Shown: positions 21,001 to 41,459 of the stretch, in pieces
Numbering within the stretch: the stretch's first letter is position 1
Layout: the number at the start of each line of letters is the position of its first letter
IMG/VR virus record: IMGVR_UViG_3300032321_001382
Direction: 5' to 3' (one strand)
From: a virus
Taxonomy: Duplodnaviria > Heunggongvirae > Uroviricota > Caudoviricetes
Length of the DNA stretch: 64,000 bases
Notes under the pieces: model-generated
Told to the model about the DNA's origin: nothing
Databases searched by the model: none
What the model saw: only the letters and a program-made list of their open reading frames with translations
Position numbers and translations under genes: made by a program

Positions 21001-23748
21001 GCTTGTACATTTATGGCTAACAACTTCGTTGTTGGTGATTTCGTTTCAAGTGGTGGATGTGGTTGTAATGTTAGTATTGATGCAAATGGTAAAATGTGTT
21101 TACAATCTGCTGCTGCTGCTAGCGTAATGAACGTTGGTTGTGGAACTTGCTCTATTGTTGGTAGTGGTTGTGGTAATCTTGCTTGTGGTGCTTGTTCATT
21201 TGTAGGTGGTGGACAATTTAACACAGCAGTTTGTGGTTTTTCTACAATTAGTGGGGGATATTGTAACGCTGCTAGTGGAAATAATTCATTTATAGGAAGT
21301 GGTGAATGTAACTTAGCTGGCGCTTCTAATTCAATTGTAGTTGGCGGTAGTTGTAATACAGCTTGTGGAAATTGTGCAATTGTAGTAGGTGGTTTTAATA
21401 ACCAATCAACTTGTTGTTATTCATTCATTGGTGGTGGAAATTGTAATTTATCTTGTGGATGTTCCTCATATATAGGTGGTGGTTCAGAAAACACCGCTAG
21501 TGGTAAATACTCTGTCATAAATGGTGGTTGTAATAATACTGCAAATTTCTTAGGAACTGTAGGTGGTGGTTCTTGTAACACTGCAAGTTGTTACTCAACC
21601 ATAGGTGGAGGTCGTATAAATACTGCTTATCAATATTCTACTATTGCTGGGGGTAATGGAAATACAGCTTGCAATGGTTCATTCGTAGGTGGTGGTAATA
21701 CTAATAGTGCTAGTGGATGTTATGGATTTATAGGTGCTGGTAGAAACAACATAGATTGTGGTCTTTGTTCTTCAATCGTAGGTGGATGTTTTAACTTTAC
21801 TTGTTGTAATGGTACATTTATAGGTAGTGGAAGCTGTAATATAGCTTGTGGAAATTGTTCAATTGTAGTTGGTGGTTGTAATAACCTATCAACTTGTTGT
21901 TATTCATTCGTTGGTGGTGGTGAGTGTAATATATCTTGTGGAGATTACTCAGCTGTATTAGGTGGTCAATGCAACATTGTTGCTGTACCTTATGCAGCGG
22001 TATTTGGTTGTAATGTTTGTAATTTGAATAGTTGCACTTTTGCTGCCAATAACTTCACAGTTCAAGACTTCTGCGCTTGTGGTGGATGTGGTTGCAATGT
22101 GAGTATTGACGCTACTGGTAAACTTTGCTTACAAGCTGGTGGTGGCGGTGGTGGTGTTATGGCTGCTGGTACTGGAATTTGTTCTATTGTTGGTAGTGGG
22201 GATAATAATATAGCTTGTGGAAATTGTTCTTTTGCTGGTGGTGGTTGTAATAACCAATCAACTTGTAATTATTCATTTATAGGCGGTGGTGAATGTAATA
22301 TATCTGGTGATTGTAATTCATTCATAGGAAATGGTTTTTGTAACACAGCTAGTGGTAAATATGCTGTAGTGGTTAGTGGTTGTTGTAATAGTGCTTACAA
22401 TCTTGGATTTGTAGGTGGCGGAACTTGTAATATAGCTTGTAATTATGCAACAATAGGTGGTGGTCGTTACAATAATGCTTCAGGTAATAGTTCATTCGTA
22501 GGTGGTGGAGATAGTAGTAATGCATCAGGATTCTTTTCAGTTGTTAGTGGTGGACTTAGTAATACCTCTAGTGGATGTTATTCTGCTATCGTAGGTGGAT
22601 GTTGCAACTTTACTTGTGCGTGTAATTCATTTATTGGTGGAGGTCAAAACAATACAGCTTGTGGAAATTGCTCATTTGTAGGGGGTGGTTGTAATAATCA
22701 AGCTACTAATGACTATTCAATAGTTGTAGGTGGTGATTGTAGTTATTCTTGCGGGTCTCGTTCAGTTGTAGTTGGTGGTTGTAATAACGTAGCAAGTTGT
22801 GTATCTTCATTCGTAGGTGGTGGTCAATATAATACATCTAGTTCATGTTTTTCATTCATAGGAAATGGATGTTGTAACACTGCTAGTGGTAAATATGCTG
22901 TTGTAGTAAGTGGTAAAAATAATAGTGCTAATTATCTTGGATTTGTAGGTGGTGGATGTTGCAACACAGCTAGTTGTTATTCAATTGTCGTTGGAGGTCG
23001 TTGTAATACAGCCCAGCCTTATAGTTATGTAATAGGTGGTTTTGCAAATACTGCTTGTTGTAGTGGATTCATTGGTAGTGGTACTACAAATACTACTTTA
23101 GGTTCACTTTCATTTGTAGGTAGTGGGTGTTGCAATACAGCTAGTTGTAATTATTCATTCGTTGGTAATGGTGCATTTAATATTGCTTCAGGATGCGAAG
23201 CATTCATAGGAAGTGGATATTGTAACACTGCTTGCGGAAATTGTTCAGCTATATTAGGTGGATGTAATAACGTAGCTAGTGCTGCTTGGAGTGGTGCATT
23301 TGGTTGCAACTTAAATGCTTGTAATGCTTGTACATTCTATACTAATAACATCTTCTCTTGTGGTGATATTTATGCTACTGGTAACATAACTGCTTGTTCT
23401 GATTCTAGGGTTAAAGAAAACATAAGACCAATTGAGAATGTATTATCTAGAATTAATTGTTCAAGAGGTGTTGTATATGATAGAATTGACACTAAGGCTA
23501 AGAATGAAATTGGTTTCATTGCTCAAGAATTAGAGGTTAACTTCCCAGAACTTGTTAAATCTGATAATGGAGATAATAAGTTTGTAAACTACCAAAGTGG
23601 TGTTGCCGTAGTATTTGAGGGATTAAAAGAGCAACAAAAAATTATTAACAAACAAGGTGAGACTATTACTAAACAAGGTGAGGAAATAAAGCAACTTAAG
23701 GCTGATGTTATAGAACTTAAAACTATAATCAATGGCTTTACCAAGTAG
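12007..23748 (+). CDS. giant (3913 aa) Cys/Gly-rich repeat fibre or spike protein with C-terminal Peptidase_S74 intramolecular-chaperone domain
   Basis: One uninterrupted 11.7-kb ORF. Hundreds of 14-16-aa repeats of the type GGG.CN.ASG.YS.VGG (Hep_Hag / YadA-head-like). Repeat blocks are separated by about 11 copies of a conserved module of roughly 50 aa, GVFGCNLCNTQACTFMSNNFVVGDFVGCGGCSLALDANGKMC. The C-terminus SDSRVKENI...IGFIAQELEVNFPELV is the S74 autoproteolytic chaperone signature. Confidence 0.85.
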   Translation: MALTNFGFTSGGCGIDCVGLTSVGLTTPSAFCVPNSPLTANGNLNLCGAGSATQYIRGDGTLADFPNIGGGGGEVFFFNGNTSQGSIGGNTYYQLGTTAGTGAAANFSVTGDAVLARFITNANVPNQILMPAGNWFFSAYFSVTSSASNPIVTATIQKYNGATFTTLATSTSEVITNGTGIEIYNFAASIADSALLATDRIAITFTTSSTSGSTMTLYTENSHISQVVSTFPTGISTLNGLTCNSQNFCTTTCGTDFTICSSGSTHCWNIPNASCTSRGLLSCTDYASFASKPIVVGSGCNSTLRCGVNNLACGIASASLGGCNNTASGNYSFVGGGFCVNAVALNSTIGGGSTILASGCGSAILGGKSNTASGNYSAILGGQCNTASAAFSGAFGCNLTACNACTFYTNNLCACGSLYTSAVTSGCAACVSTNGQIIGYTPTVATPAIIVVGAGANSTIRCGVNNTAAGIAAAALGGCNNSAVGANTFVGGGNCNIACNACSIVVGGLSNISCAAYSFIGGGNLNCTDTGVAAVVVGGTSNSAPSACTFIGGGQGNSTQGIYSSITGGYLNTTNGACSNVGGGFNNIARCALSSVLGGTGNTACANCSVVLGGSNNATRETGAFSAVLGGSGNQACCNYTAVFGCNMCNTQPCTFMANNFVVGDFVGCGGCSLALDANGKICLGAAASPSIIVAGAGANSTIRCGVNNTAAGIAGAALGGCNNSAIGVNGFVGGGNCNISCGACSSVLGGFTNKACGAFSSVGGGRSNTSTGCDSSIGGGASNTASAYRSTIGGGGSNTINSGTATTIGGGRSNTITTGFGDSTIAGGRSNTISSTYGSTIGGGCSNVISGSSSVISGGYGGNTASTYTVIGGGLYNCIGGTGAWGAVLSGVNNCMCAGNVFSVIGGGNAHIICNSVCGGAIFGGKANTASCNYSSILGGLTNRTDGVYSAVLGGCNNTASCNYTGVFGCNLCNTQACTFMSNNFVVGDFVGCGGCSLALDANGKMCIGAAASSIIVVGAGTNSTVRCGVSNSTCGTASAALGGCNNSASANYGFIGGGNCNSAAGTFSAVVGGCNNCAASNRDFVGGGSGNTASGTYSFVGGGCNNSVSVCGSNSVIVGGQNNSATGGRGFVGGGLCNTSSGNCSFVGGGFTNIACGVFSFVGGGCNNTAYGSRSTIVGGCCNIICGFNSFIGGGALNTTIDSTSTIVGGSNNLLACAISFIGGGNCNVSCQFQSVIVGGTQNIIGSNFNHCHSFIGGGNFNLVCGTASSVVGGCCNSACNTHSAVLGGCGNNASCNYTGVFGCNMCNTQPCTFMSNNFVVGDFVGCGGCSLALDANGKMCIGAGGGGGIIVLGAGCNSTLRCGVNNATSGAYSGALAGTCNVVSGACSFIGGGKINTSSNSYSSVLGGLCNCAGGFGSSTVSGYKNCSTGRYATILGGNQNTNSSYYSSIAGGQQNLISNSYNSNTGAGYYNRIIDSNFSVVAGGYINQIFSSIQSGILGGGRNRICCGCVNSTISGYYGCLNNSSFGQIGSGSYNCQQCACRSTILNGCYNKIGGTGGCCTLNSLIGGGACNIICYSDGGCFSPTCNTSYGAILNGCNNNTFGNYSLIGNGLCNIVNTSSSLTNYAVLNQCVTSFCVSGDYTTQFCAGKCIILTGGTGGCNSFVCNTSSTFYLSGDETSTYIPSVRPVIFYSTINPTFNLYCTTGFSNDICVFGDVTCDLTQWQRCVLFCNTITGCNCGSLAINGVASGYGGNTCYVGPYTEIYVPAGVDSSLYDTVTLCQYISGSGCVTASSFDGTNTAITASNFYAGVNTCYNCVNYLPFNTCVPVSSSSFDCVNTCVTISGYLYCTGIYSNASICSVTASNYSSVINGQCNIVSGNYSTANGLCNNVSVNYSSAFGCNLCNTQACTLMANNFVIGDFVGCGGCSLALDANGKMCIGAGGGGGGIIIAGSGTDSTLRCGVGNTASAIGSASLGGCNNTASGCYSFVGGGQCNIANACNSIIVGGCCNSLNYACGAFIGGGYCNSSNSECSVISGGYCNEILCSSNSNINGGFCNIINNSSTNSSILGGSGNIACGAYTGVFGCNLTNCQACTFMSNNFVVGDFVGCGGCSLALDASGKMCIGAGGGGGGIIILGTGTSSTIRCGVCNDAFGNGGSSLSGCYNISCGDYNIIGGGKCNQTTSGLYNVIVGGTQNCVSAFVNTAFIGGGQGNQVNGSNGTVVGGTFNSSVCDAFVGGGNANTASGQYSIIVGGHQNGALCNHAFIGSGNNHFNCGCNSVIVGGAEHLVCGNYAFVGGGLCNSACGNCSIVVGGCNNTASCNYSSIVGGHNNISSNQHSFVGAGDFNISCGDSSSVVAGRCNCATCGYAFVGAGLCNTASGCASSIIAGSVNTASGYYSTISGGYLNTASAAYSTISGGHSNIASGCHTFIGAGDFNCGLNYQSIVVGGQCNISCGDFASIVGGLCNISSGTYSSVVGGGTNSASGGYSFIGGGCANSVICGNSSVVGGSNNTNCQSLSFIGGGLLNTININLTESSSVLVGGQSNTLNGNAAVIVGGQCNTTCGNCSFVGGGSGNTALCDYSGVFGCNLCNTQACTFMSNNFVVGDFVGCGGCNLALDANGKMCLGAAVSASIIILGSGCNSTLRCGVNNLSSGVASASLAGCNNIASAFYTFVGGGCCNLACGNFSSILGGFCNTASGYYAGVYGCNLTNTQSCTFMSNNFVVGDFIPNGGCGCVVSIDINGKMCLQAACGGGGGVSQITAGTGITISPACGTGNVTICSTGSGPMVSGSGYCSIYGNGGSNSANGNYAFVGGGQGNNVTGPYTTIGGGRSNSISVSFGDSTIAGGRGNNIYDNASTIGGGCSNAICSPSSVISGGYGGCTSSAYTVIGGGLYNVVGGGGAWGAVLSGVSNCMCAGNVFSVIGGGNAHIICNSVCGGAIFGGKANTASCNYSAILGGLTNRTDGVYSAVLGGCNNTASCNYTGVFGCNLCNTQACTFMANNFVVGDFVSSGGCGCNVSIDANGKMCLQSAAAASVMNVGCGTCSIVGSGCGNLACGACSFVGGGQFNTAVCGFSTISGGYCNAASGNNSFIGSGECNLAGASNSIVVGGSCNTACGNCAIVVGGFNNQSTCCYSFIGGGNCNLSCGCSSYIGGGSENTASGKYSVINGGCNNTANFLGTVGGGSCNTASCYSTIGGGRINTAYQYSTIAGGNGNTACNGSFVGGGNTNSASGCYGFIGAGRNNIDCGLCSSIVGGCFNFTCCNGTFIGSGSCNIACGNCSIVVGGCNNLSTCCYSFVGGGECNISCGDYSAVLGGQCNIVAVPYAAVFGCNVCNLNSCTFAANNFTVQDFCACGGCGCNVSIDATGKLCLQAGGGGGGVMAAGTGICSIVGSGDNNIACGNCSFAGGGCNNQSTCNYSFIGGGECNISGDCNSFIGNGFCNTASGKYAVVVSGCCNSAYNLGFVGGGTCNIACNYATIGGGRYNNASGNSSFVGGGDSSNASGFFSVVSGGLSNTSSGCYSAIVGGCCNFTCACNSFIGGGQNNTACGNCSFVGGGCNNQATNDYSIVVGGDCSYSCGSRSVVVGGCNNVASCVSSFVGGGQYNTSSSCFSFIGNGCCNTASGKYAVVVSGKNNSANYLGFVGGGCCNTASCYSIVVGGRCNTAQPYSYVIGGFANTACCSGFIGSGTTNTTLGSLSFVGSGCCNTASCNYSFVGNGAFNIASGCEAFIGSGYCNTACGNCSAILGGCNNVASAAWSGAFGCNLNACNACTFYTNNIFSCGDIYATGNITACSDSRVKENIRPIENVLSRINCSRGVVYDRIDTKAKNEIGFIAQELEVNFPELVKSDNGDNKFVNYQSGVAVVFEGLKEQQKIINKQGETITKQGEEIKQLKADVIELKTIINGFTK
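14431..14990 (+). repeat. 560-bp intragenic duplication inside the giant fibre gene (copy A; copy B at about 20491..21050)
   Basis: Protein segments TIGGGRSNTITTGFGDSTIAGGRSN...GGLYN.(I/V)GG.GAWGAVLSGV.NCMCAGNVFSVIGGGNAHIICNSVCGGAIFGGKANTASCNYS.ILGGLTNRTDGVYSAVLGGCNNTASCNYTGVFGCNLCNTQACTFM are almost identical between the two positions, and the DNA is nearly identical over several hundred bp. Confidence 0.75.
23398..23745 (+). other. Peptidase_S74 intramolecular chaperone domain (C-terminus of giant fibre)
   Basis: SDSRVKENIRPIENVLSRI...VYDRID...EIGFIAQELEVNFPELV, then a coiled-coil tail. Confidence 0.8.
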
Positions 23749-26804: not shown

Positions 26805-27488
26805 ATGTTAGGATTTTTTATAAAGACGCTCTCTCATCTGTTGTTATTCTATATCATAGTAATATCAATAGCGTATGCTTTATTAATATCTAATGGTACG
26901 TTACAATCAAAATATAAGCATCTTGTTAGAGAGTTTAAATATTCTGTATTAAGTCTCTTATTATTTAGTGTAATAGCTACTATTTTATATGAAACTAAAT
27001 TATTAAATTATACTACGCTATATTATAATATTAGTGAACATGGTTGGTTTTACTATTTTGGTATAATACCTATAATATTTCTTATATATGACTTTTATTT
27101 TTATCTCACACATATCTTAATGCATCATAAAAAATTATTTAATTTCTTTCATTTAACTCATCATAAATCTAAAGAGATTTCTCCCATGTCTGCTTTATCT
27201 ATGGACCCATTAGAAGCAATTATTAATCATGGAGCTTTACTTTTATTATTTTTATTATTTCCAATACATACATCTCATGTTTATTTATGGGTAGCAGTAA
27301 CAATAACTTATACTACTTATCTTCATTTAGGAACAGAGATATTTTCAAATAAATTCTTACAAACTAAGCTTGGAAAATTAATTAATACTACTACAACTCA
27401 TTCACAACATCACCTAAAATTTAAAGGTAATTATGGTTTTTATACTTTAATTTGGGATAAATTATTTAAAACAGAAAGAAATGCCTAA
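26805..27488 (+). CDS. fatty acid hydroxylase / sterol desaturase superfamily membrane enzyme (histidine boxes)
   Basis: 227 aa with several TM segments and the His boxes HILMHHKKLF, FHLTHHKSK and THSQHHLKFKGNYG, which match the di-iron HxxHH motifs of the FA_hydroxylase family. Confidence 0.65.
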   Translation: MLGFFIKTLSHLLLFYIIVISIAYALLISNGTLQSKYKHLVREFKYSVLSLLLFSVIATILYETKLLNYTTLYYNISEHGWFYYFGIIPIIFLIYDFYFYLTHILMHHKKLFNFFHLTHHKSKEISPMSALSMDPLEAIINHGALLLLFLLFPIHTSHVYLWVAVTITYTTYLHLGTEIFSNKFLQTKLGKLINTTTTHSQHHLKFKGNYGFYTLIWDKLFKTERNA

Positions 27489-30400
27489 TGTACCTATATC
27501 CAGTTTACCATTTACTAGTTCGGTAAATCCAACTGCCTTAGTACCCATAGTTCAAAATGGGATTACTTGCTCTACCTATGCTTGCTTATTAGGAAGTGGT
27601 GGAGGCGGAGGTGGTGGTAATGTTACTTGTTTAGTAGCTGGAAGTGGAGTTATTTTGAGTCCAACGACTGGTGTGGGTGTAGTAACAGTTACTAGTACGG
27701 GTAGTGGCTCAAGTGGTTCAAGTGGCTCTGCTGGAACAAGCGGCTCGAGTGGATTGTCTTTTGGTACAAGTGGTACAAGTGGTTTATCTTTTGGTACAAG
27801 TGGTACAAGTGGCGCAAATGGTACAAGCGGCTCAAGCGGGTCGAGTGGAATAAATGGTTCTAGTGGACAAACATTTGGTACAAGCGGAACTAGTGGTTTA
27901 TCTTTTGGTTCTAGTGGTACTGCTGGTACAAGTGGTTTATCTTATGGTACAAGTGGGACTAGTGGAGCTAATGGAACGAGTGGTTCTAGCGGTTCTAGTG
28001 GTTTCTCTTATGGTACAAGTGGAACTAGTGGTTTATCTTTTGGTTCTAGTGGTACAAGTGGTTTATCATTTGGTACTAGTGGTACTAGTGGCTCAAGTGG
28101 GTCTAGTGGCTCTAGTGGTACAACTTTTGGTTCTAGTGGTACATCTGGTTTATCTTATGGTACTAGTGGTACATCTGGTAGTTCAGGCTCTAGTGGTGCT
28201 ACTTTTGGTACTTCTGGTTCTTCAGGCACTTCTGGCTCTAGTGGATTAAGTTTTGGAACAAGTGGTACATCTGGCTCTAGTGGTACAACTTTTGGTACTA
28301 GTGGTACTAGCGGTACTAATGGTTCTAGTGGGTCAAGCGGTTTATCTTATGGTACAAGTGGAACAAGTGGCTCAAGTGGAGCTGCTGGTACTAGTGGTTT
28401 TACATATGGCACTAGTGGAACTAGTGGTTCGAGTGGAGCTGATGGAACTAGTGGAGAGACATATGGTACAAGTGGAACTAGTGGTTCGAGTGGAGCTGCT
28501 GGAACTAGTGGACAGACATATGGCACTAGCGGAACTAGTGGCTCAAGTGGAAGAAATGGCTCAAGTGGAACTAGCGGTTCAAGTGGAATTTCATTTTTCG
28601 GAACAACAAGTGGAACTAGCGGTACAAGTGGCTCAAGTGGAGCTGCTGGAACTAGTGGAGAAACATATGGTACAAGCGGCACTAGCGGGTCAAGCGGGAC
28701 CAGTGGCTCGAGTGGAACTAATGGCTCAAGTGGGACTAATGGCTCAAGCGGGACTAGCGGGACTAGTGGCTCGAGTGGGACGACTGGGACTAGCGGTTCA
28801 AGTGGTTCTGCTGGAACTAGTGGATTGTCTTTTGGCACAAGTGGAACTGCGGGAACCAGTGGAGAAACATTTGGTACAAGCGGTACTAATGGTACAAGTG
28901 GCACTAGTGGGTCTAGCGGGTCTAGTGGCTCCAGTGGTTCGAGTGGCTCGAGTGGGACTAGCGGGACTAGCGGTACAAGTGGTTCGAGTGGCTCGAGTGG
29001 TTCAAGTGGTTCGGCGGGAACGAGCGGTGCTACATTTGGAACAGCAGGAACCAGTGGTTCGAGTGGCTTAAGCGGTACAAGTGGTGTTAATGGATTAAAT
29101 GGTACAAGTGGTGTTAATGGTACAAGTGGCGTTAATGGTGTTAATGGTACAAGTGGGTTAAATGGAACGAGTGGCGTTAATGGAACGAGTGGGTTAAGCG
29201 GTACAAGTGGTTCTAGTGGTTCTAGTGGCTCAAGTGGTTCTGCTGGAACTAGTGGAGCAACATTTGGTTCAAGCGGTACAAGTGGCGTTGGAGGTATATT
29301 AATACTTGGTTCTGGTGCTAATTCTACAGAAAGATGCGGCGTTAATAATACGGCATCTGGCGCTTATTCATTCGCTGGCGCTGGTCAATGCAATATTGCT
29401 TGTGGTTGTGGTTCTTCAGTTATAGGTGGTCAATGTAATAGTGCTTGTGGAGCATTTACTGGTGCATTTGGTTGTAACCTTACTAATACACAAGCTTGTA
29501 CATTTATGGCTAACAACTTTGTTGTTGGTGACTTTATATCTTTTGGTGGATGTGGATGTGGTGTTAGTATAGATAATAGTGGAAAGTTATGCTTACAAGC
29601 TGGCGGAGGTGGCGGCGGTGGTGGTATAATAGTACTTGATAGTGGATGTAACTCATCTGTAAGATGTGGTGTAGGTAATTCAGCTACAGGAGCTTATTCA
29701 TTCGCTGGTGGTGGTCAATGTAATACTGCTTCAGGTAACTGCTCATTTGTTGGTGGTGGTTTTTCTCACTCAAATTGTGGCGTTTATTCTACAATAGTAG
29801 GGGGTCTTTGTAATTTAGCTTGTGGTGCTTGTAATGTATTTATAGGTGGTGGTATATGTCATAGTGCGTTAGCTGCTTCTACTACAATTGTAGGTGGGGT
29901 ATGTAATTATACTTGTGGAGCACATTCTTTCATAGGGGGTGGATTTGGTAATCGCACTCTAGCTCTTTGTTCAACTATTGTGGGAGGTTGTTGTAATTTT
30001 ATACTTGGCGGAACTTCTTATGGTTTCATAGGTGGTGGAAGTAATAATTGTGTCGCATATAGTACATCTCAAGGAAATTATGGAGTAGTCGTAGGTGGTA
30101 ATGGTAACACTGCTGGACCTAATTCTGCTGTAGTAGGTGGAAGTGGTAATACCGCTAGTACTTATAATATGTTTATAGGTGGTGGTGTTAATAATAAAAT
30201 ATGTGCAGACCATCAAAACGGTGTTATTGTTGGAGGTTGTGCTAATATAATATATCGTGGTTACAATAACTTTATAGGCGGTGGTCAAGCAAATTTTATT
30301 TGTGTTCCCACATTTGGTAGTGCATTTGGAACTTTAGTGGGTGGTTGCACAAATTGTATGTGTGGTCAATGTGGTTTTATTGGAGGTGGTGCTAAAAATC

Positions 30401-31743
30401 TTGTAGGAGCTTCTGCTAATGGTGGAGTTGTAGTAGGTGGTTTATGTGGTACAGCAAGTGGAGCTTATTCAGCCATAGTTGGTGGTCAAACTAACATAGC
30501 AAGTGCGACAAATTCTTTTGTAGGTGGTGGTCGTTGTAACTGCGCTACTGGTCTTTGTGCCGCTGTTTTAGGTGGTCAATGTAATACAGCAAGTGGTTGT
30601 TATTCTAATGTAGCTAGTGGATGTAAAAATACAGCAAGTGGTCGATATGCTGGTGTAGGAGGTGGTAAAGATATTCTTAATCAAGGTGGTTATAGTTTTA
30701 TAGGTAGTGGAATTAGTAATTGTACTGGTTCAAACTTAAATTTATATGCTTTTATAGGTTCTGGATTTGCAAATTGCGTTACTGGACCTTGTTCACTTGT
30801 TGCTGGTGGTGGTAGCAACTCAGCAAGTGGATATCATACAGCCATACTTGGTGGTCGTAATAATATATCCAGTGGTGCTTGTAGTGCTATTGTTGGTGGA
30901 TGCGCTAATTCATCTACTACTGCATTTAGTTTTGTAGGTGGTGGATGTAATAATATTGCTTGTGGTGCTGCAGCTACTATATCTGGCGGTTATTGTAACA
31001 GAGCAAGTGGAGCTTGTTCTACTATATCTGGTGGTTATGGCAACCTAGCAAGTGGTGGATGGTCAACTGTCGCTGGTGGTAATAGTAATGCTGCTTGCAC
31101 TTTTAATAATATTTTTGTAGGTGGTGGTGCTAGTAATAAAGGAAATTCTGCTGGAGCAACAATTGTAGGAGGTATTTTTAATTGTAGTGTAACTGGTATT
31201 TATACCTCTATTTTAGGTGGTGCTAGTAATACGGTATGTGGTGCTTGTTCTGCAATATTAGGTGGTTCTGGAAATATAACAACTGCAGCATTGAGTGGTG
31301 CATTTGGATGTAATGTTAACAATATTACAGCTTGTTCATTTATGTCTAACCAATTAATAGCTTGTAATATATTTGGAGCTGGGGCTATTTGTGCTGACGC
31401 AAATGGTGTAATTGTTCCAGTAGTTTCAGATAGCAGATTAAAGACAAATATTTGTCCTTTAAATTCTGGAATGGATAAGGTATCATTATTAAATCCAGTT
31501 AGCTTTGAATGGAAAGATGAATTTAAAAAATCAAATGGAATTGATAGACAAATAGGCTTTATCGCTCAAGAAGTTAAAGAGGTAGTACCAGAGGCGGTAT
31601 TTGTTACAACAAGTGGTAATTTTGGATTAAATGATAGCCCTATTGTAGCACTATTGACCAAGGTTGTTCAAGACCAAGAAAAAAGAATCAATACTTTAGA
31701 AAAAAGAGTAGAAAATCTAGAGTTTTTAATGAAAAATAAGTAA
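27481..31743 (+). CDS. 1420-aa fibre protein: collagen-like Gly-X-Y region, then Cys-rich Hep_Hag-like repeats, then C-terminal Peptidase_S74 chaperone domain
   Basis: About 530 aa of G(T/S)SG(S/T)(S/A/N)G triplets with periodic LSFG/TFG/TYG interruptions, including roughly 25 perfect GVN/GTS/GLN triplets. Downstream come the same linker module (GAFGCNLTNTQACTFMANNFVVGDFISFGGCGCGVSIDNSGKLC) and repeat type as the giant gene. The C-terminus is SDSRLKTNICPLN...IGFIAQEVKEVVPEAVF. Confidence 0.85.
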   Translation: MPNVPISSLPFTSSVNPTALVPIVQNGITCSTYACLLGSGGGGGGGNVTCLVAGSGVILSPTTGVGVVTVTSTGSGSSGSSGSAGTSGSSGLSFGTSGTSGLSFGTSGTSGANGTSGSSGSSGINGSSGQTFGTSGTSGLSFGSSGTAGTSGLSYGTSGTSGANGTSGSSGSSGFSYGTSGTSGLSFGSSGTSGLSFGTSGTSGSSGSSGSSGTTFGSSGTSGLSYGTSGTSGSSGSSGATFGTSGSSGTSGSSGLSFGTSGTSGSSGTTFGTSGTSGTNGSSGSSGLSYGTSGTSGSSGAAGTSGFTYGTSGTSGSSGADGTSGETYGTSGTSGSSGAAGTSGQTYGTSGTSGSSGRNGSSGTSGSSGISFFGTTSGTSGTSGSSGAAGTSGETYGTSGTSGSSGTSGSSGTNGSSGTNGSSGTSGTSGSSGTTGTSGSSGSAGTSGLSFGTSGTAGTSGETFGTSGTNGTSGTSGSSGSSGSSGSSGSSGTSGTSGTSGSSGSSGSSGSAGTSGATFGTAGTSGSSGLSGTSGVNGLNGTSGVNGTSGVNGVNGTSGLNGTSGVNGTSGLSGTSGSSGSSGSSGSAGTSGATFGSSGTSGVGGILILGSGANSTERCGVNNTASGAYSFAGAGQCNIACGCGSSVIGGQCNSACGAFTGAFGCNLTNTQACTFMANNFVVGDFISFGGCGCGVSIDNSGKLCLQAGGGGGGGGIIVLDSGCNSSVRCGVGNSATGAYSFAGGGQCNTASGNCSFVGGGFSHSNCGVYSTIVGGLCNLACGACNVFIGGGICHSALAASTTIVGGVCNYTCGAHSFIGGGFGNRTLALCSTIVGGCCNFILGGTSYGFIGGGSNNCVAYSTSQGNYGVVVGGNGNTAGPNSAVVGGSGNTASTYNMFIGGGVNNKICADHQNGVIVGGCANIIYRGYNNFIGGGQANFICVPTFGSAFGTLVGGCTNCMCGQCGFIGGGAKNLVGASANGGVVVGGLCGTASGAYSAIVGGQTNIASATNSFVGGGRCNCATGLCAAVLGGQCNTASGCYSNVASGCKNTASGRYAGVGGGKDILNQGGYSFIGSGISNCTGSNLNLYAFIGSGFANCVTGPCSLVAGGGSNSASGYHTAILGGRNNISSGACSAIVGGCANSSTTAFSFVGGGCNNIACGAAATISGGYCNRASGACSTISGGYGNLASGGWSTVAGGNSNAACTFNNIFVGGGASNKGNSAGATIVGGIFNCSVTGIYTSILGGASNTVCGACSAILGGSGNITTAALSGAFGCNVNNITACSFMSNQLIACNIFGAGAICADANGVIVPVVSDSRLKTNICPLNSGMDKVSLLNPVSFEWKDEFKKSNGIDRQIGFIAQEVKEVVPEAVFVTTSGNFGLNDSPIVALLTKVVQDQEKRINTLEKRVENLEFLMKNK
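27700..29290 (+). repeat. collagen-like Gly-X-Y coding repeat (low-complexity DNA)
   Basis: ggt/ggc/gga appears every 9 nt with act/agt/tct/agc in between; spurious antisense ORFs overlap it. Confidence 0.7.
31426..31740 (+). other. Peptidase_S74 intramolecular chaperone domain (C-terminus of second fibre)
   Basis: SDSRLKTNI...SFEWKDEF...RQIGFIAQEVKEVVPEAV. Confidence 0.8.
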
Positions 31744-32109: not shown

Positions 32110-32982
32110 ATGAATATTATATTCCAAATTTCTGGTGGAATTGGTAAATCTATTACATCCACAGCAGTCTGTAAAGCAATAAAAAAGAAATATCCAAACG
32201 ATAAATTAATCGTTGTTACTGGTTATCCAGATGTATTTACTAATAGTAAAGATGTAGATATGGCTTTTGGCTTTGGTCAAGAAGGCTATTTCTATACAAA
32301 ATACATAGAAAATCAAGATGTAAAAATAATGGCTTTAGAGCCATACGTAGTAACAGAGCACGTTCAACAAAAAGAACACCTTATCGAAACGTGGTGTAAA
32401 CTATGTGATGTGCCTTACAATGGAGAGCAGCCAGAGGTGTTTATAAACGATAGAGAGCGCTCTTTCTTCCAAGAAAAATATAAAAGTGATAAGCCAATTT
32501 TGTTAATGCAAACAAATGGCGGAGCAGAACAACAACAAGTAAAATACTCTTGGGCAAGAGATATTCCTCGCCATGTAGTAGATGCAGTTGTTAATGAATT
32601 CAGAAATGATTATAATATAGTTCATATTAAAAGAGAAGACCAATATGGTTTTGATGGCACTTTTGCAGTAACAGACAACTATAAAGGAATATCTGTTTTA
32701 ATCGAAATGAGCGAGAAAAGATTATTCATGGATAGTTTTGCTCAACACACTGCAGCGGCTATAAATAAGCCATCTACCGTTCTTTGGATAGCCAATACCC
32801 CAAAAGTATTCGGATATGAATTACATGAAAATATTGTATCAAATCCATTTACTGCTAAAGGAGATTTAAAGAATAGTTTTTTTGGAAAATTTAATATTGT
32901 TGGAGCTTTAGAAGAATTTCCTTACAAAAACGAATTAGAAATATTCGATGTAGAAAAAGTAATTGCTTCTCTTAAAAAATAG
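32110..32982 (+). CDS. GT9-family (heptosyltransferase-like) glycosyltransferase
   Basis: 290 aa. N-terminal MNIIFQISGGIGKSITSTAVCKAIKKKYPNDKLIVVTGYP resembles the ALGD-type N-terminus of LPS heptosyltransferases. The C-terminal region carries a DS..QHTAAA block. Confidence 0.5.
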   Translation: MNIIFQISGGIGKSITSTAVCKAIKKKYPNDKLIVVTGYPDVFTNSKDVDMAFGFGQEGYFYTKYIENQDVKIMALEPYVVTEHVQQKEHLIETWCKLCDVPYNGEQPEVFINDRERSFFQEKYKSDKPILLMQTNGGAEQQQVKYSWARDIPRHVVDAVVNEFRNDYNIVHIKREDQYGFDGTFAVTDNYKGISVLIEMSEKRLFMDSFAQHTAAAINKPSTVLWIANTPKVFGYELHENIVSNPFTAKGDLKNSFFGKFNIVGALEEFPYKNELEIFDVEKVIASLKK

Positions 32983-33226: not shown

Positions 33227-33231
33227 AATTG

Positions 33232-33302
33232 ATGCTTCACTAAGATTCGAACTTAGACTAAGAGAACCAAAAACTCTGGTGCTACCATTACACTATGAAG
33301 CA
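33232..33302 (-). tRNA. tRNA, anticodon UUG (Gln) by my fold; imperfect anticodon stem
   Basis: Minus-strand sequence TGCTTCA-TA-GTGT-AATGGTA-GCAC-C-AGAGT-TTTTGGT-TCTCT-TAGT-CTAAG-TTCGAAT-CTTAG-TGAAGCA-T. It has a good acceptor, D arm and T arm (TTCGAAT loop) and one T-T mismatch in the anticodon stem. Confidence 0.5.
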
Positions 33303-33308
33303 TTATTG

Positions 33309-33396: not shown

Positions 33397-34005
33397 TTAT
33401 TTCCTTTTAACATACAAGCAATCAAATTGAAAATCCCAACATCTTTTCTTATCAACTAGCGAAAAACCCCTATCTAAAAGATATTTATTTATCTCACTAT
33501 CTATTTTTTGATTTTCAAAACAAACTCTCTCTTCCGTTTCGATTTGTATAGCTTTTATTTCATTTATCTTATCACCTAGACCATCTAAAACCTCATATCC
33601 ATGACCCTCTACATCAATTTTAATTAAATCAATTTGGAAATCAAAGGTATCTAGTCTTATAGACTTTACTATATTTTTCTCATATTCTAGATTGTCAACA
33701 TGAAAGGATTTTTTTATAGAAGAAATACCTCTAAGTAGTTCGTTGTCAGACACAACTGATAAAAATTCTATCTCACCATTTTCATTAGAAGCAGCTACAT
33801 TGTATACTTTATACTTATAATTATCAATTATGTTATTATATGACTTTACATCAGCTTCTATTATGTGACAATTTTCAGTATTTAAATTCCAATACTTGGA
33901 AACATAATCAGTATCCTTACCATCTCTGCTACCTACCTCCATAAAAGAAGTTGGTTTAAAATAAGGTTTTAATATATCTGTAAGTTGTCTTAAGTCGTTT
34001 CTCAT
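33397..34005 (-). CDS. FkbM-family methyltransferase
   Basis: 202 aa; SFMEVGSRDGKDTDYVSKYW matches the FkbM SAM-binding block (f.DiGAn.G). Confidence 0.55.
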   Translation of the reverse strand: MRNDLRQLTDILKPYFKPTSFMEVGSRDGKDTDYVSKYWNLNTENCHIIEADVKSYNNIIDNYKYKVYNVAASNENGEIEFLSVVSDNELLRGISSIKKSFHVDNLEYEKNIVKSIRLDTFDFQIDLIKIDVEGHGYEVLDGLGDKINEIKAIQIETEERVCFENQKIDSEINKYLLDRGFSLVDKKRCWDFQFDCLYVKRK

Positions 34006-34622
34006 TTTGATTGTATATTGGATTCAAACTCTTTATTTTGAACTATTGTATCAAATGGAATTACAATCCTAGTATTATATAGACCACTTTGGTTTGAATT
34101 CAAACTCATATGCTGTAATATTTTAGCATAAAAATTATCTATTTCCATACCACTAGGTATAGCCATATTAATTATATCATCATATATTTTATGTTTTAAA
34201 GCATAAGCATGAGCGCAAACAATTTGGTTTCTGAAAAAATTCTCTACCAATCCTCCAAAATATAATAAATCCCAATCATTAAGAATAGATTCGTTTAGCC
34301 CTAGTATTTTACTTGGATTATCTAAAATTTGTACATCATCTTCTAGAATTAAAATTTTGCCATATCCTTTTTCCTTTGCTATTTTAACTATTCCCAAATG
34401 AGAAGCACGACACCCTAAAGAGTTTAAAATATACTTATCATCTATTTTGTTAAAATTCCTCCAATACTTAGGTTCTGGTATCTCTGTAAAGCTAATAGCA
34501 TCAAACCTTTCAAAGTTTGTTATACCAAATTTATCAAACTGCGCTAATAGGTTATTTTTCCTATTAACATCTTTTGCTAAATTTATATAAAATATTTTGT
34601 CAAAATACTTATTAATGTCCAT
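34002..34622 (-). CDS. glycosyltransferase family 25 (LPS/LOS-type)
   Basis: 206 aa; MDINKYFDKIFYINLAKDVNRKNNLLAQFDKFGI...FDAI is the GT25 N-terminal signature. Its start overlaps the upstream gene. Confidence 0.65.
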   Translation of the reverse strand: MDINKYFDKIFYINLAKDVNRKNNLLAQFDKFGITNFERFDAISFTEIPEPKYWRNFNKIDDKYILNSLGCRASHLGIVKIAKEKGYGKILILEDDVQILDNPSKILGLNESILNDWDLLYFGGLVENFFRNQIVCAHAYALKHKIYDDIINMAIPSGMEIDNFYAKILQHMSLNSNQSGLYNTRIVIPFDTIVQNKEFESNIQSK

Positions 34623-35443
34623 TATTTGCTATATCTAAAGTATTTAAAAAACCATTCGTGATTAGTGTAAATCCAATCACATACTTCTTTGGTTAATAAT
34701 GCTTTGGCTTTAGAAGGAGTCAACTTAAGTTGTTTTCTAATAGTGTGGTCTCCAAAAGCTCCATAAACCTCATCATCTTCTTTAGTAACTTGTTCAATAT
34801 TATCAAAATCGTGTTTAAAGTGTGTAATACCTAAATATTGATAAATCTTAGTCATGGTACTATCTGGATAAAGGCATAAATCCTCATATTTTATAAATAA
34901 AATCTTAGCATCATTTCCAGTTCGGATGATTTCTTGTAATCTTTCAATAGCCATACCCACTGGAGGATTCTGTAGCCAAAAGTCGATACGCTTAGGAACC
35001 GTTGTGGCTTGACCAGTTGACCAATTCACAATTCCTTGGCTCTTTTCTGGATTTTTTCTAAAATTACCCTCCATAGAAGCAAAAACATCTCTCAAATCCC
35101 TAACCATACAAATAATCTTAGGTTCTTCACCTCTAATGCTTGTAAGAAAATCGAAATGAATACCCCAACCTCTGCTTTTGTCAATAACATACTTTTTATC
35201 AGTAATAGAATTATAGAAAGCATCCATACCCTCTTTGCAAAAGGCTGTATAACCCTTTTTCATTAGTTCTTTGTCTTGGGCAATAAATTCTGGTGATGTG
35301 CTATAATTCTCTCTAGCAGCAAAAATAAGCTCTAAAACACCACTCGTAGGAGTTGCGTAAATATCTGGATTTTGTGCTAAAATGTTCTGAAGCATTGTGC
35401 TTCCAGCTCTAGGTAGTGAGCTTTGAAAAAATAAATTTTCCAT
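34622..35443 (-). CDS. PAPS-dependent sulfotransferase
   Basis: 273 aa; 5'-PSB-like LPRAGSTML and 3'-PB-like MVRDLRDVFASM motifs. Confidence 0.7.
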   Translation of the reverse strand: MENLFFQSSLPRAGSTMLQNILAQNPDIYATPTSGVLELIFAARENYSTSPEFIAQDKELMKKGYTAFCKEGMDAFYNSITDKKYVIDKSRGWGIHFDFLTSIRGEEPKIICMVRDLRDVFASMEGNFRKNPEKSQGIVNWSTGQATTVPKRIDFWLQNPPVGMAIERLQEIIRTGNDAKILFIKYEDLCLYPDSTMTKIYQYLGITHFKHDFDNIEQVTKEDDEVYGAFGDHTIRKQLKLTPSKAKALLTKEVCDWIYTNHEWFFKYFRYSK

Positions 35444-35726
35444 AATGTAGTTTCGCTTTAAAAAATGATTAATTTTACTACACGAAAGTAAAAATAAAAT
35501 ACCATAAAAGGAAATAAATTATGAAAAAAGTTGACATTCGTTTTAACACCAATTTCCCATCTAGAAGCCAATACGAATGGCGTGTATTAATTAATGGAGA
35601 TGGGGTTTCTATTCTTACATTGTTTCCTATACTACAGCTACATTTATTGAGGGTCATGGTATGAAATGGCACTTATCTACAGAAGCAAATGAAATAGAGA
35701 TTGATAACTCTTTAATTACCAACAAA

Positions 35727-36803
35727 TTAGCTATTATTAAGTAAGTGTTCTATATCAGTTAATACCCTATCTAGAGATATTTTCTTATGACACTCGAATT
35801 GTCTAGGTGTATCCTCATGCTCTGGACACCAATTCCAATCTCCTTTGTTAAATTTGAATAATTCATTGTTCCAACATCCATTACATATGCTTGTATCACT
35901 TATTCTGGTACAATCTGACTGAAATTCATGTGTATTTACCGAGAAGTTGGAAATCATCACAACCTTTTTATTTAAAGCCCAAGAAAGCCAAGACAATCCG
36001 CTTGATAAGCCAATAAAGAACTCTGAGTGATGTATTATATTGCTTACATTTTGTATTGACTTATCTTCTATATTAACAATATTTTTAAACTCGTTTTTCT
36101 CCATAGAAACCTCAATTACCTTATATCCTCTTTCATTTAATGAGTCAATTAATTCCTGCCAATAGTACCAAAGTTTACATTGGGATGTAGAAAAGGTAGA
36201 TATAGCTATATATTTCTCTTTTATAGGGCGCTCCATTACTTCAAAATCTACATATGGTTTAATTTCCTTAAATGGAATATTTAAAATATTTGTTGCGTTT
36301 TTTTGTAAGGGGATAGTGGATGGATTTACTGGTTCTTTTTTATCATCGTAAAACCAACCTAACTCGAATCCAGCATGAATATTTTCTATTAACTCTCCTT
36401 TTTCAGTAAAATTTATATGTGGATATTTGTTACGAAATAGATTATTATGAAAACATGATACAATAACATCACATTTGTAAAAATTTCTAAACTCTTCGCA
36501 ATAAGGCATCCAAGCTATAGTATCACCTAATGAACTACTTTCAAAATTTATAAGCACTCTTTTACCTTGAATTTCATCCTTTATACTTATTTTTTTTACA
36601 AAATTACCCTCAAATGTCACTAAAACAAAAATATCAGAAAAGTACTTTTTATCTAATCTAGCCCAACTACTCGGTTTTAACTTTGTTTGATAAATTATTT
36701 CATTCTTCTCTAAAAAACAAACATCGTATTCCCTATCTAACCCACCATCATTAAGTATTTCAAAAAATAAACCATCTACATGATGAATATTATATGTAAT
36801 CAT
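35727..36803 (-). CDS. GT9-like glycosyltransferase with C-terminal Cys4 cluster (resembles autotransporter protein-heptosyltransferases)
   Basis: 358 aa. KRVLINFESSSLGDTIAWMPYCEEF is an ALGD-type N-motif, and FFIGLSSGLSWLSWALNKKVVMI matches the DSG..HLA block. The C-terminus carries a CNGCW...WCPEH...FECH cysteine cluster. Confidence 0.5.
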   Translation of the reverse strand: MITYNIHHVDGLFFEILNDGGLDREYDVCFLEKNEIIYQTKLKPSSWARLDKKYFSDIFVLVTFEGNFVKKISIKDEIQGKRVLINFESSSLGDTIAWMPYCEEFRNFYKCDVIVSCFHNNLFRNKYPHINFTEKGELIENIHAGFELGWFYDDKKEPVNPSTIPLQKNATNILNIPFKEIKPYVDFEVMERPIKEKYIAISTFSTSQCKLWYYWQELIDSLNERGYKVIEVSMEKNEFKNIVNIEDKSIQNVSNIIHHSEFFIGLSSGLSWLSWALNKKVVMISNFSVNTHEFQSDCTRISDTSICNGCWNNELFKFNKGDWNWCPEHEDTPRQFECHKKISLDRVLTDIEHLLNNS

Positions 36804-37840
36804 TTATATAAGTTTAAATATTTTTCTTTAGTTAATCTAGAGGATACATTATTGTCAAACTTTGTCACGCTAGAATACATATAAGACAATGATTTACAAA
36901 CATTTATCCAATCATATTTTAATCTAGATTTACTCATTTCGTATACCCATACATCATAGTTTCCAATTATATGTTTTATACCATCAATTAGGCACATAGT
37001 CATTAAAGAGCCAGATGGTAATGGTTCCTGAATTACATACATACCATCAATATCTTTTGTACCCTTGTAAGTACCAACGATGGGTAAACAACAACTAGCT
37101 GATTCCAATAATGTCAAATTTGGATGACCAGCTTCTAAAAAAGAAGGATGTAAAAATATTGTGTGTTCTTTATATATATCTAAAAGTTCATTTTCAGTTG
37201 GGTTATTATCTATAATTCTTAGATTGCTATATTCTAATAGGTCTTTATGCAAATCAAAAAATTGTTTATTTGCTTGGGCTCCTACTATTGTTATGGGCAA
37301 GTTTAATTCTTTTGCAGCATTTATTCCATGTATAAAACCCTTTCTATCAATACTTTGGTCTCCAGCTAATCCATTATTAGCTACCATAAGTAATTTATGG
37401 TTTACATAATCATTTTTAAAACTTGGAGTAAAAAAGCTAGTGTTTACGCCATGTGACAAGTAAAATAATTTATCTGTTTCTTCAAAATATTGAATTAAAT
37501 GCTCTGCGTGTGTTATTGAGAATATAGAACCTTTCATAGCTTCTAAATTTTGCTTGTATACGTCACTATCTTTTCCATACCATTCTGTGTGGTGGTCATG
37601 CAATGAGAAAATATATGGTATATTACGACTTTTTGCCTCTAAGCATAGATTAGCCATATGTATATGAACTATGTCATATTCCATTGGTCTGATATCGTTT
37701 AGGTACTTAATATCAACACTATGTCCTAGTTCTTCAAAAGAACTTTTATATTCTCTTATAATTTTCTCAACAGCTCCCCAACCCATTTCCCCAATAGGTT
37801 TAATTGGAATCATTCCCGTTTGCAATTGGCAAATTCTCAT
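36800..37840 (-). CDS. GT4-family (GT-B) glycosyltransferase
   Basis: 346 aa; the C-terminal FLHPSFLEAGHPNLTLLESASCCLPIVGT matches the GT4 E-x7-E region. Confidence 0.65.
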   Translation of the reverse strand: MRICQLQTGMIPIKPIGEMGWGAVEKIIREYKSSFEELGHSVDIKYLNDIRPMEYDIVHIHMANLCLEAKSRNIPYIFSLHDHHTEWYGKDSDVYKQNLEAMKGSIFSITHAEHLIQYFEETDKLFYLSHGVNTSFFTPSFKNDYVNHKLLMVANNGLAGDQSIDRKGFIHGINAAKELNLPITIVGAQANKQFFDLHKDLLEYSNLRIIDNNPTENELLDIYKEHTIFLHPSFLEAGHPNLTLLESASCCLPIVGTYKGTKDIDGMYVIQEPLPSGSLMTMCLIDGIKHIIGNYDVWVYEMSKSRLKYDWINVCKSLSYMYSSVTKFDNNVSSRLTKEKYLNLYK

Positions 37841-40527: not shown

Positions 40528-41459
40528 ATAATTTCTAATATTTTATTAAATACTTGTTCTGTTGATGGGTGACATTCATATGTCTTTTTGTTTTCTAAGC
40601 ATCCTATAAGTGGGGGAACTCCTTGAATATCGCCCCATTGCTTAACTCCATGCTTCATATTAGAGGCACATTCCAAATTACACGAACCACGAACATAATT
40701 GTATTTGTAGGTTTGACTTAATTTTCTATATGGAGCTCTAAATTCTGGCTTTATAGAAGAGCCTAAATGTATAATATTAGAATCAGTTGTTCCAGCTAAA
40801 TGTAATAAACCAGAGTCCATGGTTACAAAACAAGAAGCCTTGTCAATAAGATTCCAGCAATCAGAAATTGATGTTTTATTCATAAGATTCAATCCATTTT
40901 CTATACTAAAATTAAAAACTGGCTTTTCAACATCAAAAAACCCCATCTCTTTTGAGTCTTTCCCAATAGAGACAACGCTAATACCATTATCATTAAGCAT
41001 TTTCGTCAACAACATCCAATTTATATCTCCCCAAGTTCTACTTTCCCAAGTACTTACTGGGTGTATTAGAACATATCTATCTGGTATTGTGATATTTAAC
41101 TCTTCAATAGGACGATAAAAACACTCTAACTCGTCTTTACCTAGCATAAATCCCAAGCTGATTGCATGAAATTGTCTAATATCTATCATATTGTGCTTGT
41201 ACTCAATCCCCTTTTCATTTTTACCACCAATATTGTAAAATGAATTATGTACTATGTAATTTTTATTTATATAATCCATATTTACCGAGCTTATTTTTAA
41301 ACTTTTATCTACATAGATATTGTTTTTAAATAGCTCTGGCATTAAAGATAGTATGGTTATCTTTTGTTCGTAAGATTCTGATAATTTTTTAATAGTTGGA
41401 GTTGAGCAAATCAAGTCTCCAAGTCCCTTGCACTCACCTAGATTTAAACAAACTTTCAT
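40524..41459 (-). CDS. GT9 heptosyltransferase-like glycosyltransferase with C-terminal Cys cluster
   Basis: 311 aa. LIHPVSTWESRTWGD...DSGLLHLAGTTDSNIIHLGSS is the classic GT9 C-domain. The C-terminal region carries CNLECAS...C...YECH. Confidence 0.65.
   Translation of the reverse strand: MKVCLNLGECKGLGDLICSTPTIKKLSESYEQKITILSLMPELFKNNIYVDKSLKISSVNMDYINKNYIVHNSFYNIGGKNEKGIEYKHNMIDIRQFHAISLGFMLGKDELECFYRPIEELNITIPDRYVLIHPVSTWESRTWGDINWMLLTKMLNDNGISVVSIGKDSKEMGFFDVEKPVFNFSIENGLNLMNKTSISDCWNLIDKASCFVTMDSGLLHLAGTTDSNIIHLGSSIKPEFRAPYRKLSQTYKYNYVRGSCNLECASNMKHGVKQWGDIQGVPPLIGCLENKKTYECHPSTEQVFNKILEII

Follow-up and report, generated by a model that had tools for sequence, protein, structure and literature searches.

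Organisation of the fibre 2 gene

The IMG/VR virus record IMGVR_UViG_3300032321_001382 (Caudoviricetes), a stretch of 64,000 nucleotides (nt) referred to here as the window, contains a gene for a fibre-like protein of 1420 amino acids (aa), fibre 2 (27481..31743, + strand, in the list of open reading frames (ORFs)). The protein carries a 528-residue stalk with a Gly-X-Y period that is under purifying selection, followed by a Cys-rich repeat body and a C-terminal Peptidase_S74 domain. On balance, fibre 2 probably forms a homotrimeric fibre of the virion with a collagen-like stalk, most likely on the tail; the phage that encodes it is uncultured and highly divergent.

The N-terminus is formed by a presumed virion-attachment domain, the anchor (aa 1-46; 27481..27618, +), which ends in a run of seven glycines, and by a connector unit, NVTCLVAGSGVILSPTTGVGVVTVTSTGSG (aa 47-75; 27619..27705, +), resembling the connectors between the modules of a larger paralogous fibre upstream, fibre 1. 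The similarity extends over the end of the anchor and the connector (aa 19-76), which resemble the fibre 1 connector at aa 2739-2789. The stalk (aa 76-603) consists of an N-proximal part (aa 76-396; 27706..28668, +), for which the segment table gives 20 Gly-X-Y segments of one to nine triplets (4-28 aa), almost all of them terminated by a single inserted Phe or Tyr, and a C-proximal part (aa 397-603; 28669..29289, +) with runs of 18, 4, 18 and 25 triplets and four interruptions, which adjoins the presumably trimeric body. The longest unbroken run, 25 triplets at aa 520-594 (29038..29262, +), includes a GVN/GLN/GTS block. The stalk is followed by a short first β-roll module with the cap GAFGCNLTNTQACTFMANNFVVGDF (aa 604-707; 29290..29601, +), assigned from its repeat layout and aligning to the module ends of fibre 1, and by a linker of eight glycines (aa 708-715; 29602..29625, +) that separates it from the second β-roll module. 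This is the main Cys-rich body, a predicted left-handed β-roll with the final cap GAFGCNVNNITACSFMSNQLIACNIF (aa 716-1315; 29626..31425, +). The protein ends with the Peptidase_S74 intramolecular chaperone (aa 1316-1420; 31426..31743, +, stop codon included).

The repetitive stalk raises the question of a mis-assembled repeat or of recent slippage, and both were rejected. Tandem Repeats Finder reports nested repeats in the stalk, whose periods range from 9 to 204 nt and whose copies have diverged to 61-96% identity, mostly 61-86%; in the N-proximal part, the periods are 30, 57, 87 and 114 nt with 66-86% identity. Mis-assembly is unlikely because the longest exact DNA repeat within the stalk measures only 35 nt, and an identical copy of the protein is encoded on the public 118 kb metagenome scaffold ENA ERZ28594751, which is the same as the window over 24,263 identical bases. 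The fibre 2 gene had no megablast match in 50,697 deposited phage genomes, and the β-roll body without S74 had no tblastn match in the same collection; counterparts of the S74 domain alone are present there.

The Gly-X-Y period of the stalk

Residues 74-607 (534 aa) can be parsed into 171 Gly-initiated units, of which 144 are exact G-X-Y triplets; a further 23 have four residues and follow the pattern G-x-[S/T]-[F/Y]. There is a single irregular spot, GISFF-GTTS. With 144 exact triplets and a score of 137.4 bits against the Pfam Collagen model (PF01391; gathering cutoff 27.2), the collagen-like stalk of about 530 residues described in the initial annotation is confirmed at the level of its primary structure. 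The Pfam score is mostly driven by the Gly period, and its best stretch covers aa 547-603. Unbroken runs of 18, 18 and 25 triplets occupy aa 397-450, aa 465-518 and aa 520-594, respectively, the last being the series of about 25 perfect triplets that had been quoted as GVNGLNGTSGVNG... before. In total, 13 segments contain at least six triplets; their complete absence had been named as the observation that would turn the region into a disordered Ser/Thr/Gly linker. The Gly-X-Y pattern is far beyond chance, as the longest in-register run reaches 25 triplets compared to a maximum of 12 in 2000 residue shuffles.

The composition of the triplets is narrow. Among the 144 regular triplets, the X position is occupied by Thr (75) or Ser (51) in most cases, and the Y position by Ser (116; 81%), Asn (15) or Ala (10), with a single Thr. 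GTS (67) and GSS (47) are the prevailing triplets. The 534 residues contain neither Pro nor Lys and only five charged residues.

The interruptions, which the initial annotation had listed as LSFG, TFG and TYG, are present and follow a simple rule: 23 of the 24 result from the insertion of one Phe or Tyr after G-x-[S/T]. Segments closed by an inserted aromatic residue are consequently 3n+1 residues long (10, 13, 16, 19, 22, 28, 55 and 76). The interruptions are distributed unevenly, with 20 in aa 76-396 versus 4 in aa 397-595, the part proximal to the body.

Selection on the glycine period

In the entire stalk, no in-register Gly is substituted (no six-residue unit was found), although the Gly codons vary freely: all four are used (78, 44, 32 and 17 times), corresponding to an effective number of 3.5. 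The period is thus under selection. Ser is encoded by TCN at X and mostly by AGY at Y, and as many as 36 different 9-nt sequences encode the 114 GTS and GSS triplets. In four copies of a 19-aa repeat, 38 of the 49 nucleotide differences fall in the third codon position, and 34 synonymous codon differences stand against 8 nonsynonymous ones. Codon usage and third-position diversity had been proposed as a measure of the age of the repeat, and the well-mixed synonymous sites answer that question: the Gly period is old and is maintained at the protein level by purifying selection.

The β-roll body and the S74 chaperone

The body (aa 604-1315) is built of turns of 14-16 residues with about 8% Cys. 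The motif φ-x-G-G-x-x-N-x-A-x-G-x-x-S provides 36 repeat anchors in aa 608-1310, mostly 14-16 residues apart and most of them in the main body (aa 716-1315). The body is paralogous to fibre 1 (35-39% identity) and matches the head of the adhesin UspA1 (3pr7) with a phmmer E-value of 1.6e-16, while the Pfam head-repeat models stay below threshold on it (LbR_Ice_bind, 19.4 versus 30; UspA1_rep, 13.2 versus 27). An AlphaFold2 model of the body reaches a mean predicted local distance difference test (pLDDT) score of 67.5; 458 residues score at least 70, and confidence is low in the first β-roll module (aa 604-707). Foldseek searches with this model retrieved the adhesin heads of CbpF, UspA1 and BoaA and a ryegrass ice-binding protein. 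No β-barrel translocator or membrane anchor domain was found in fibre 2, whose C-terminus is the S74 domain. Both the sequence and the model indicate that the body is a head-like, left-handed β-roll and that fibre 2 is not an autotransporter. Of the trimeric β-helical head suggested in the initial annotation, the likeness to trimeric adhesin heads is retained, but the fold is more precisely a left-handed β-roll with 14-16-residue turns than a generic β-helix.

The S74 domain is recognised by Pfam at aa 1316-1373 (61.6 bits versus a cutoff of 22; E-value 9e-17). It starts with SDSRLK (aa 1316-1321), which fits the S-D-x-R-x-K pattern of the Ser/Lys dyad; in alignment A1, S709 and K714 show hardly any variation. 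The AlphaFold2 model of the chaperone part has pLDDT values of 76-93 and matches the MyRF ICA domain (7dc3) in Foldseek with a probability of 1.00 and a target TM-score of 0.56-0.63; further matches are the phage intramolecular chaperone 3gw6, and 3gud. Self-cleavage before Ser1316 is predicted from these features. The presence of a Cys-rich repeat body and an S74 chaperone, as originally proposed, is therefore borne out by the UspA1 and S74 matches. A homotrimeric fibre is well supported by homology, because every relative of the body or the chaperone with a solved structure is a trimer. The earlier proposal of an obligate trimer with a long reach likewise draws its support from homology, namely from the S74 domain with its Ser/Lys dyad and from the body resembling the heads of trimeric autotransporter adhesins (TAAs).

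The stalk as a lineage-specific insertion

The N-terminal 76 residues of fibre 2, i.e., anchor and connector, are 72-73% identical to two metagenomic proteins of 470 aa (P0008) and 876 aa (P0025). Both are full-length orthologs that share the two termini with fibre 2 and have no stalk; the connector unit is present twice in P0008. The anchor family is otherwise very small: the anchor has no relatives in IMG/VR, and a homolog search with an anchor profile returned three short fragments only, missing P0008 and P0025.

A stalk-less fibre 2 of 470 aa is seen on a 50.7 kb scaffold from the same study (L008), on which the whole block is syntenic with 27-90% protein identity, most of it 40-90%. Fibre 1 (2037 aa) is followed there by fibre 2, a 105-aa gene, a 291-aa gene and finally a transferase island containing methyl-, glycosyl- and sulfotransferases and an APS kinase. 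A second relative, the 111 kb IMG/VR contig L010, encodes a fibre with a C-terminus that is 61% identical; at least 1000 aa of it are visible without a stalk, the 5' end being cut by the end of the contig. A 290-aa gene and a sulfotransferase follow the fibre here as well.

Because two stalk-less orthologs keep both ends, the sequence comparison identifies the stalk as a lineage-specific insertion that separates the conserved anchor from the tip, which is conserved as well. Orthologs ranging from 470 to 1420 aa with conserved ends imply that the reach of the fibre is a variable trait of this lineage, which may relate to thick host envelopes.

Proline-free stalks and aromatic punctuation in other proteins

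A homolog search with aa 1-607 yielded more than 1800 proteins, and the composition of the best 120 stalk matches was surveyed. Most of these are Pro-free, with 45-65% Ser plus Thr in the triplet region and runs of up to 123 triplets, and Pfam Collagen and S74 occur together in 13 of the 120. One of the proteins, P0027, is a small version of the complete fibre 2 design: its stalk of 14 GTS triplets is combined with the same type of Cys-rich body and with S74. One Ser/Thr-collagen gene is located in a T4-like structural module together with Gp23 and gp13. The combination of a collagen-like stalk with S74 is thus an already known architecture that is common in sequence databases. What goes beyond the known cases is a 528-residue stalk that lacks imino acids, is almost uncharged and has its Gly period under selection.

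The aromatic insertions are more unusual. By the same count, fibre 2 has 22 single aromatic insertions versus 0-2 in the other proteins. A HMMER search of 1.84 billion representative sequences with aa 74-400 gave 3642 matches, and among the best 150 of these the punctuation grammar was found only in P0285, an unrelated multi-domain protein with 16 Tyr/Trp insertions and units of 10 and 13 residues. Judged by these surveys, Pro-free Ser/Thr stalks occur commonly among metagenomic fibre proteins, whereas dense aromatic punctuation is rare. The one-residue Phe/Tyr insertions represent a rare but recurring grammar and could be hinges or aromatic clamps. As a side observation, P0285 and two further unrelated metagenomic multi-domain proteins (P0266 and P0305) contain Pro-free GTS/GSS triplets that are closed by G-x-T-Y/W, GVDGNFY or GSFL, and also three-residue GTSSTS insertions that keep the register.

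Although hundreds of Pro-free metagenomic stalks exist, no experimental work on them was found. If such stalks are true triple helices, they would extend the stability rules of collagen and offer simple designs for recombinant collagens.

Proposed assembly of the fibre and alternative interpretations of the stalk

The Gly period next to trimerising domains makes a triple-helical stalk likely. In the proposed assembly pathway, the S74 domain would trimerise and fold the β-roll body before it cleaves itself off in front of Ser1316. The folded body would then fix the register of the three chains, allowing the stalk to zip into a triple helix from the C- to the N-terminal end; the location of the longest perfect runs adjacent to the body fits this direction. 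The C-proximal part (aa 397-603) would form a nearly unbroken stiff rod of about 59 nm, and the N-proximal part (aa 76-396) would span about 92 nm if extended, with a Phe or Tyr insertion every 4-28 residues. Each insertion site may create a local bulge, a hinge or a clamp with three clustered aromatic side chains, and since all three identical chains carry the same insertion, the helix could resume in register behind it. Overall, the stalk could serve as a spacer of about 150 nm (about 151 nm if triple-helical) that holds an adhesin-like receptor-binding body far away from the anchor-attached particle.

Several observations weigh against a triple-helical stalk on a tail fibre. Host-guest scales of triple-helix propensity assign low ranks to Thr at X and to Ser at Y. 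The usual stabilisers are missing, as the stalk has no imino acids, only five charged residues, and Thr at X instead of Y; in the bacterial and prophage collagens that have been characterised, stability is attributed to Pro at X, to charged pairs and to Thr at Y (PMC3368898, PMC8968730). Most segments in aa 76-290 comprise only three to six triplets, which is short for a stable helix. Matches in the PDB to animal collagens and to a 'spindlefibril/axialfibril' chain rest on the Gly period only and were rejected as homology. The AlphaFold2 monomer model of aa 1-400 is unstructured (pLDDT 30), and is uninformative for a trimer as well as for a polyproline-II bundle. Finally, none of the genes in the window could be firmly assigned to the tail or the capsid, so that the term 'tail' is an assumption.

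The last point is based on a PHROGs scan of 20 other ORFs of the window, namely 8 from the region that extends from a terminase fragment to fibre 1, 10 small upstream ORFs and two downstream ORFs. Three of the 20 gave weak hits: a TerL nuclease-like fragment (182-994), a 'lytic tail protein' (8074-8784), for which L008 has a faint SLT match at the corresponding place, and a family of unknown function (an 874-aa ORF). The 'lytic tail protein' and SLT hits, weak as they are, speak for a tail module. By tblastn, no match in the deposited phage genomes was obtained with the TerL-like fragment or with the 874-aa protein; the virus is very divergent. The 874-aa protein is Cys-rich (55148-57772, +) and matches the eukaryote-type modules cEGF, Sushi, TIL and DUF5874.

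The strongest alternative, which is less likely but has to be taken seriously, considers the stalk as a flexible, mucin-like Ser/Thr/Gly tether of three separate extended chains, perhaps with heavy O-glycosylation by enzymes of the nearby island, and the Gly period as a by-product of the expansion of a 9-nt unit. The nested tandem duplications (periods between 9 and 204 nt) would be explained in this way, and the lack of Pro, the near absence of charge, the unstructured monomer model and a gene for a protein O-glycosyltransferase 4 kb away also suit a tether. A disordered linker, however, does not need a Gly at every third position, and yet not one in-register Gly has been replaced while the synonymous sites have become mixed. 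All interruptions except one are insertions and never Gly substitutions, and unrelated Pro-free stalks hold runs of up to 123 triplets beside trimerising domains, which likewise speaks against a tether.

It is improbable that aa 76-396 adopt a non-collagen fold, e.g., an antiparallel polyproline-II bundle or sheet as in the snow-flea antifreeze protein or the glycine-rich adhesin domain of gp38, with Phe/Tyr at the turns or in a small core and only aa 397-603 being collagen-like. Polyproline-II bundles do use Gly-X-X repeats without Pro. Such a fold would account for short segments that each terminate in an aromatic residue, and the same grammar recurs in the unrelated P0285 with its 10- and 13-residue units ending in Tyr or Trp; but an antiparallel bundle requires helices of nearly equal length, whereas the segments vary between 4 and 28 residues, and the chain must still link the N-terminal anchor to the C-terminal trimer. 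The AlphaFold2 prediction, weak evidence as it used a single sequence, did not produce a compact fold either.

It is very improbable that fibre 2 is not a virion component but an adhesin-like protein which the phage carries and which is secreted or displayed on the cell surface. The body has close homologs in bacterial chromosomes (e.g., Portibacter lacus, 658 kb contig), and none of the genes in the window is firmly identified as structural. However, fibre 2 has neither a membrane anchor nor a translocator domain, fibres ending in S74 typically belong to virions, and the gene lies behind that of the 3913-aa paralogous fibre in a block whose synteny extends to two other viral contigs.

Genes surrounding fibre 2

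Fibre 1 (12007..23748, +), the 3913-aa paralog of fibre 2, consists of many Cys-rich β-roll modules and an S74 domain (SDSRVK, aa 3798), and contains no Gly-X-Y run of four or more triplets. The two fibre genes are separated by a 3.7 kb insert that is absent in L008. It encodes a 718-aa Laminin_G_3 lectin-like protein (23732-25888), a 75-aa ORF, a weakly GNAT-like 181-aa ORF and a membrane protein of the FA_hydroxylase family (26805-27488, +; Pfam E-value 6.6e-25), the gene of which overlaps the start of fibre 2 by 8 nt.

Downstream of fibre 2, a 290-aa gene (32110..32982, +) is found that follows the fibre in all three relatives and is 90% identical in L008 and 60% in L010; profile and homology scans assigned no family to it. 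Genes for tRNA-Gln(TTG) (33231-33302, -) and tRNA-Ser(TGA) (33308-33395, -) are located between the fibre operon and a glycosylation island. The stalk alone contains 68 TCN Ser codons, which tRNA-Ser(TGA) could serve.

The glycosylation island and its relation to the fibre

The island (33397..41459, -) encodes an FkbM methyltransferase, a GT25 enzyme, a sulfotransferase, a first GT9 enzyme, two GT1-type enzymes and a second GT9 enzyme. The sulfotransferase (34622..35443, -; Pfam Sulfotransfer_1) is located near fibre 2 in all three relatives, with 82% identity in L008 and 73% in L010, and L008 additionally retains APS kinase and a cytidylyltransferase-like gene. These conserved genes suggest that sulfation dependent on 3'-phosphoadenosine 5'-phosphosulfate is associated with the fibre locus.

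The first GT9 enzyme (35727..36803, -) is a candidate for fibre modification and belongs to the Aah/TibC-type protein O-heptosyltransferases (BAHT family); its association with the fibre is presumed. It matches TIGR04414 over aa 31-352 (247.4 bits, cutoff 200) and TibC (4rb4; 6e-44). Compared to the residues listed in PMC4358343, the catalytic Asp110, Thr226, Lys230 and Trp305 are aligned and Arg286 is replaced by Val, and all four Cys residues of the iron finger (Cys339, 342, 358 and 370) are aligned (CngC...wCp...feC). Homologs were detected in only 4 of the 50,697 deposited phage genomes, none of them annotated as such. In one phage locus (L009; Microcystis phage Mel-JY01, 4750-8430), a 1226-aa 'methyltransferase FkbM' carries a BAHT-like C-terminal domain with 38% identity to the window enzyme; the neighbours of this fusion are a structural protein and a cytidylyltransferase-like gene, an enzyme set that the window has as well. 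Protein glycosylation by the phage is plausible from these gene contents, and with an Aah/TibC-type enzyme encoded nearby, the question of whether a phage glycosylates its adhesin-like fibres becomes open to direct testing.

The initial annotation had connected the island to the stalk, considering its Thr and Ser residues as potential O-glycosylation sites. The presence of a TIGR04414-type protein O-glycosyltransferase agrees with this, but the proposed target is weakly founded. Substrates of the BAHT family are Ser residues in the repeats of β-helix adhesins (PMC4358343), and hence resemble the fibre bodies and not the stalk. L008, with a stalk-less fibre 2, and L010, with no stalk in the visible part of its fibre, keep parts of the island, L008 with its methyl-, glycosyl- and sulfotransferases, and no sugar genes occur within 10 kb at four of five other Ser/Thr-collagen fibre loci, the exception being P0169 (DegT, GFO_IDH). 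A general link between Ser/Thr-collagen fibres and nearby glycosyltransferases was rejected as unsupported, with sugar genes at one of the five loci. Furthermore, the precedent for sugar-stabilised collagen relies on Thr at Y, which is almost absent here.

A more far-reaching proposal is that the fibre is a virus-made glycoprotein, in which BAHT-primed Ser glycans, together with the clusters of three aromatic residues at the insertion sites, stabilise a triple helix devoid of imino acids and nearly devoid of charge. The GT9, GT1 and GT25 enzymes, the FkbM methyltransferase and the sulfotransferase would then extend and decorate the glycans started by the BAHT enzyme. This is doubtful; if it holds true, there would be a third mechanism by which collagen is stabilised, and fibre 2 would be the first fibre of a phage known to be modified by an adhesin-type heptosyltransferase.

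Comparison with known systems

The full-length BAHT-family enzyme of the window is encoded near genes for Ser-rich β-solenoid repeat proteins, as in the AIDA-I/Aah and TibA/TibC systems (PMC4358343). Unlike Aah and TibC, it is phage-encoded, carries the Arg286 to Val exchange and is accompanied by glycosyl-, methyl- and sulfotransferases.

Collagen-like sequences in phages date back to the 'bacteriophage collagen' of Smith et al. 1998, as cited in PMC1079782. The prophage tail fibres EPclA-D of E. coli O157:H7 also contain a Gly-X-Y stalk beside phage-fibre domains, with few conserved interruptions and a trimer that is set by the C-terminal domain (PMC3368898). The EPcl stalks reach at most 322 aa, contain Pro at about half of the X positions and many charges, and are free of Phe, Tyr, Cys, His and Trp (PMC3368898), whereas the 528-aa stalk of fibre 2 has no Pro, five charged residues and 23 inserted Phe/Tyr residues; the C-terminal domains are unrelated. 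Closer in composition are orf028 of cyanophage P-SSM2, in which 49% is Gly-X-Y with X and Y often being Pro, Ser or Thr (PMC1079782), and the metagenomic Pro-free fibres. Their triplets are dominated by Ser and Thr as in fibre 2, and Peptidase_S74 is often present, but stalks of the P-SSM2 and metagenomic type are nearly unbroken, with up to 123 triplets. BclA of the Bacillus exosporium and the cuticle collagen of Riftia are rich in hydroxy amino acids and free of hydroxyproline, like fibre 2, and glycosylated Thr in Gly-X-Thr is thought to aid their stability, as far as they are treated in PMC3368898 and PMC8968730. According to the same accounts, they have Thr at Y and Pro at X, in contrast to fibre 2 with Ser at 81% of the Y positions, Thr at X and no Pro.

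The C-terminal domain corresponds to the self-cleaving trimerisers with a Ser/Lys dyad that are found in S74 fibres and spikes (endosialidase, T5 pb1 and phage GA-1; 3gw6 and 3gud) and in the MyRF ICA domain (7dc3). The known clients of S74 are triple β-helices, while the client in fibre 2 would be a β-roll body with a collagen-like stalk. This body shares the left-handed β-roll, the 14-16-residue turns and the GG..N..A.G..S motif with the TAA heads of UspA1, YadA, BoaA and CbpF. Fibre 2 differs from the TAAs in having no neck, coiled-coil stalk or β-barrel anchor, in its Cys content of about 8% and in being assembled, as predicted, by an S74 domain.

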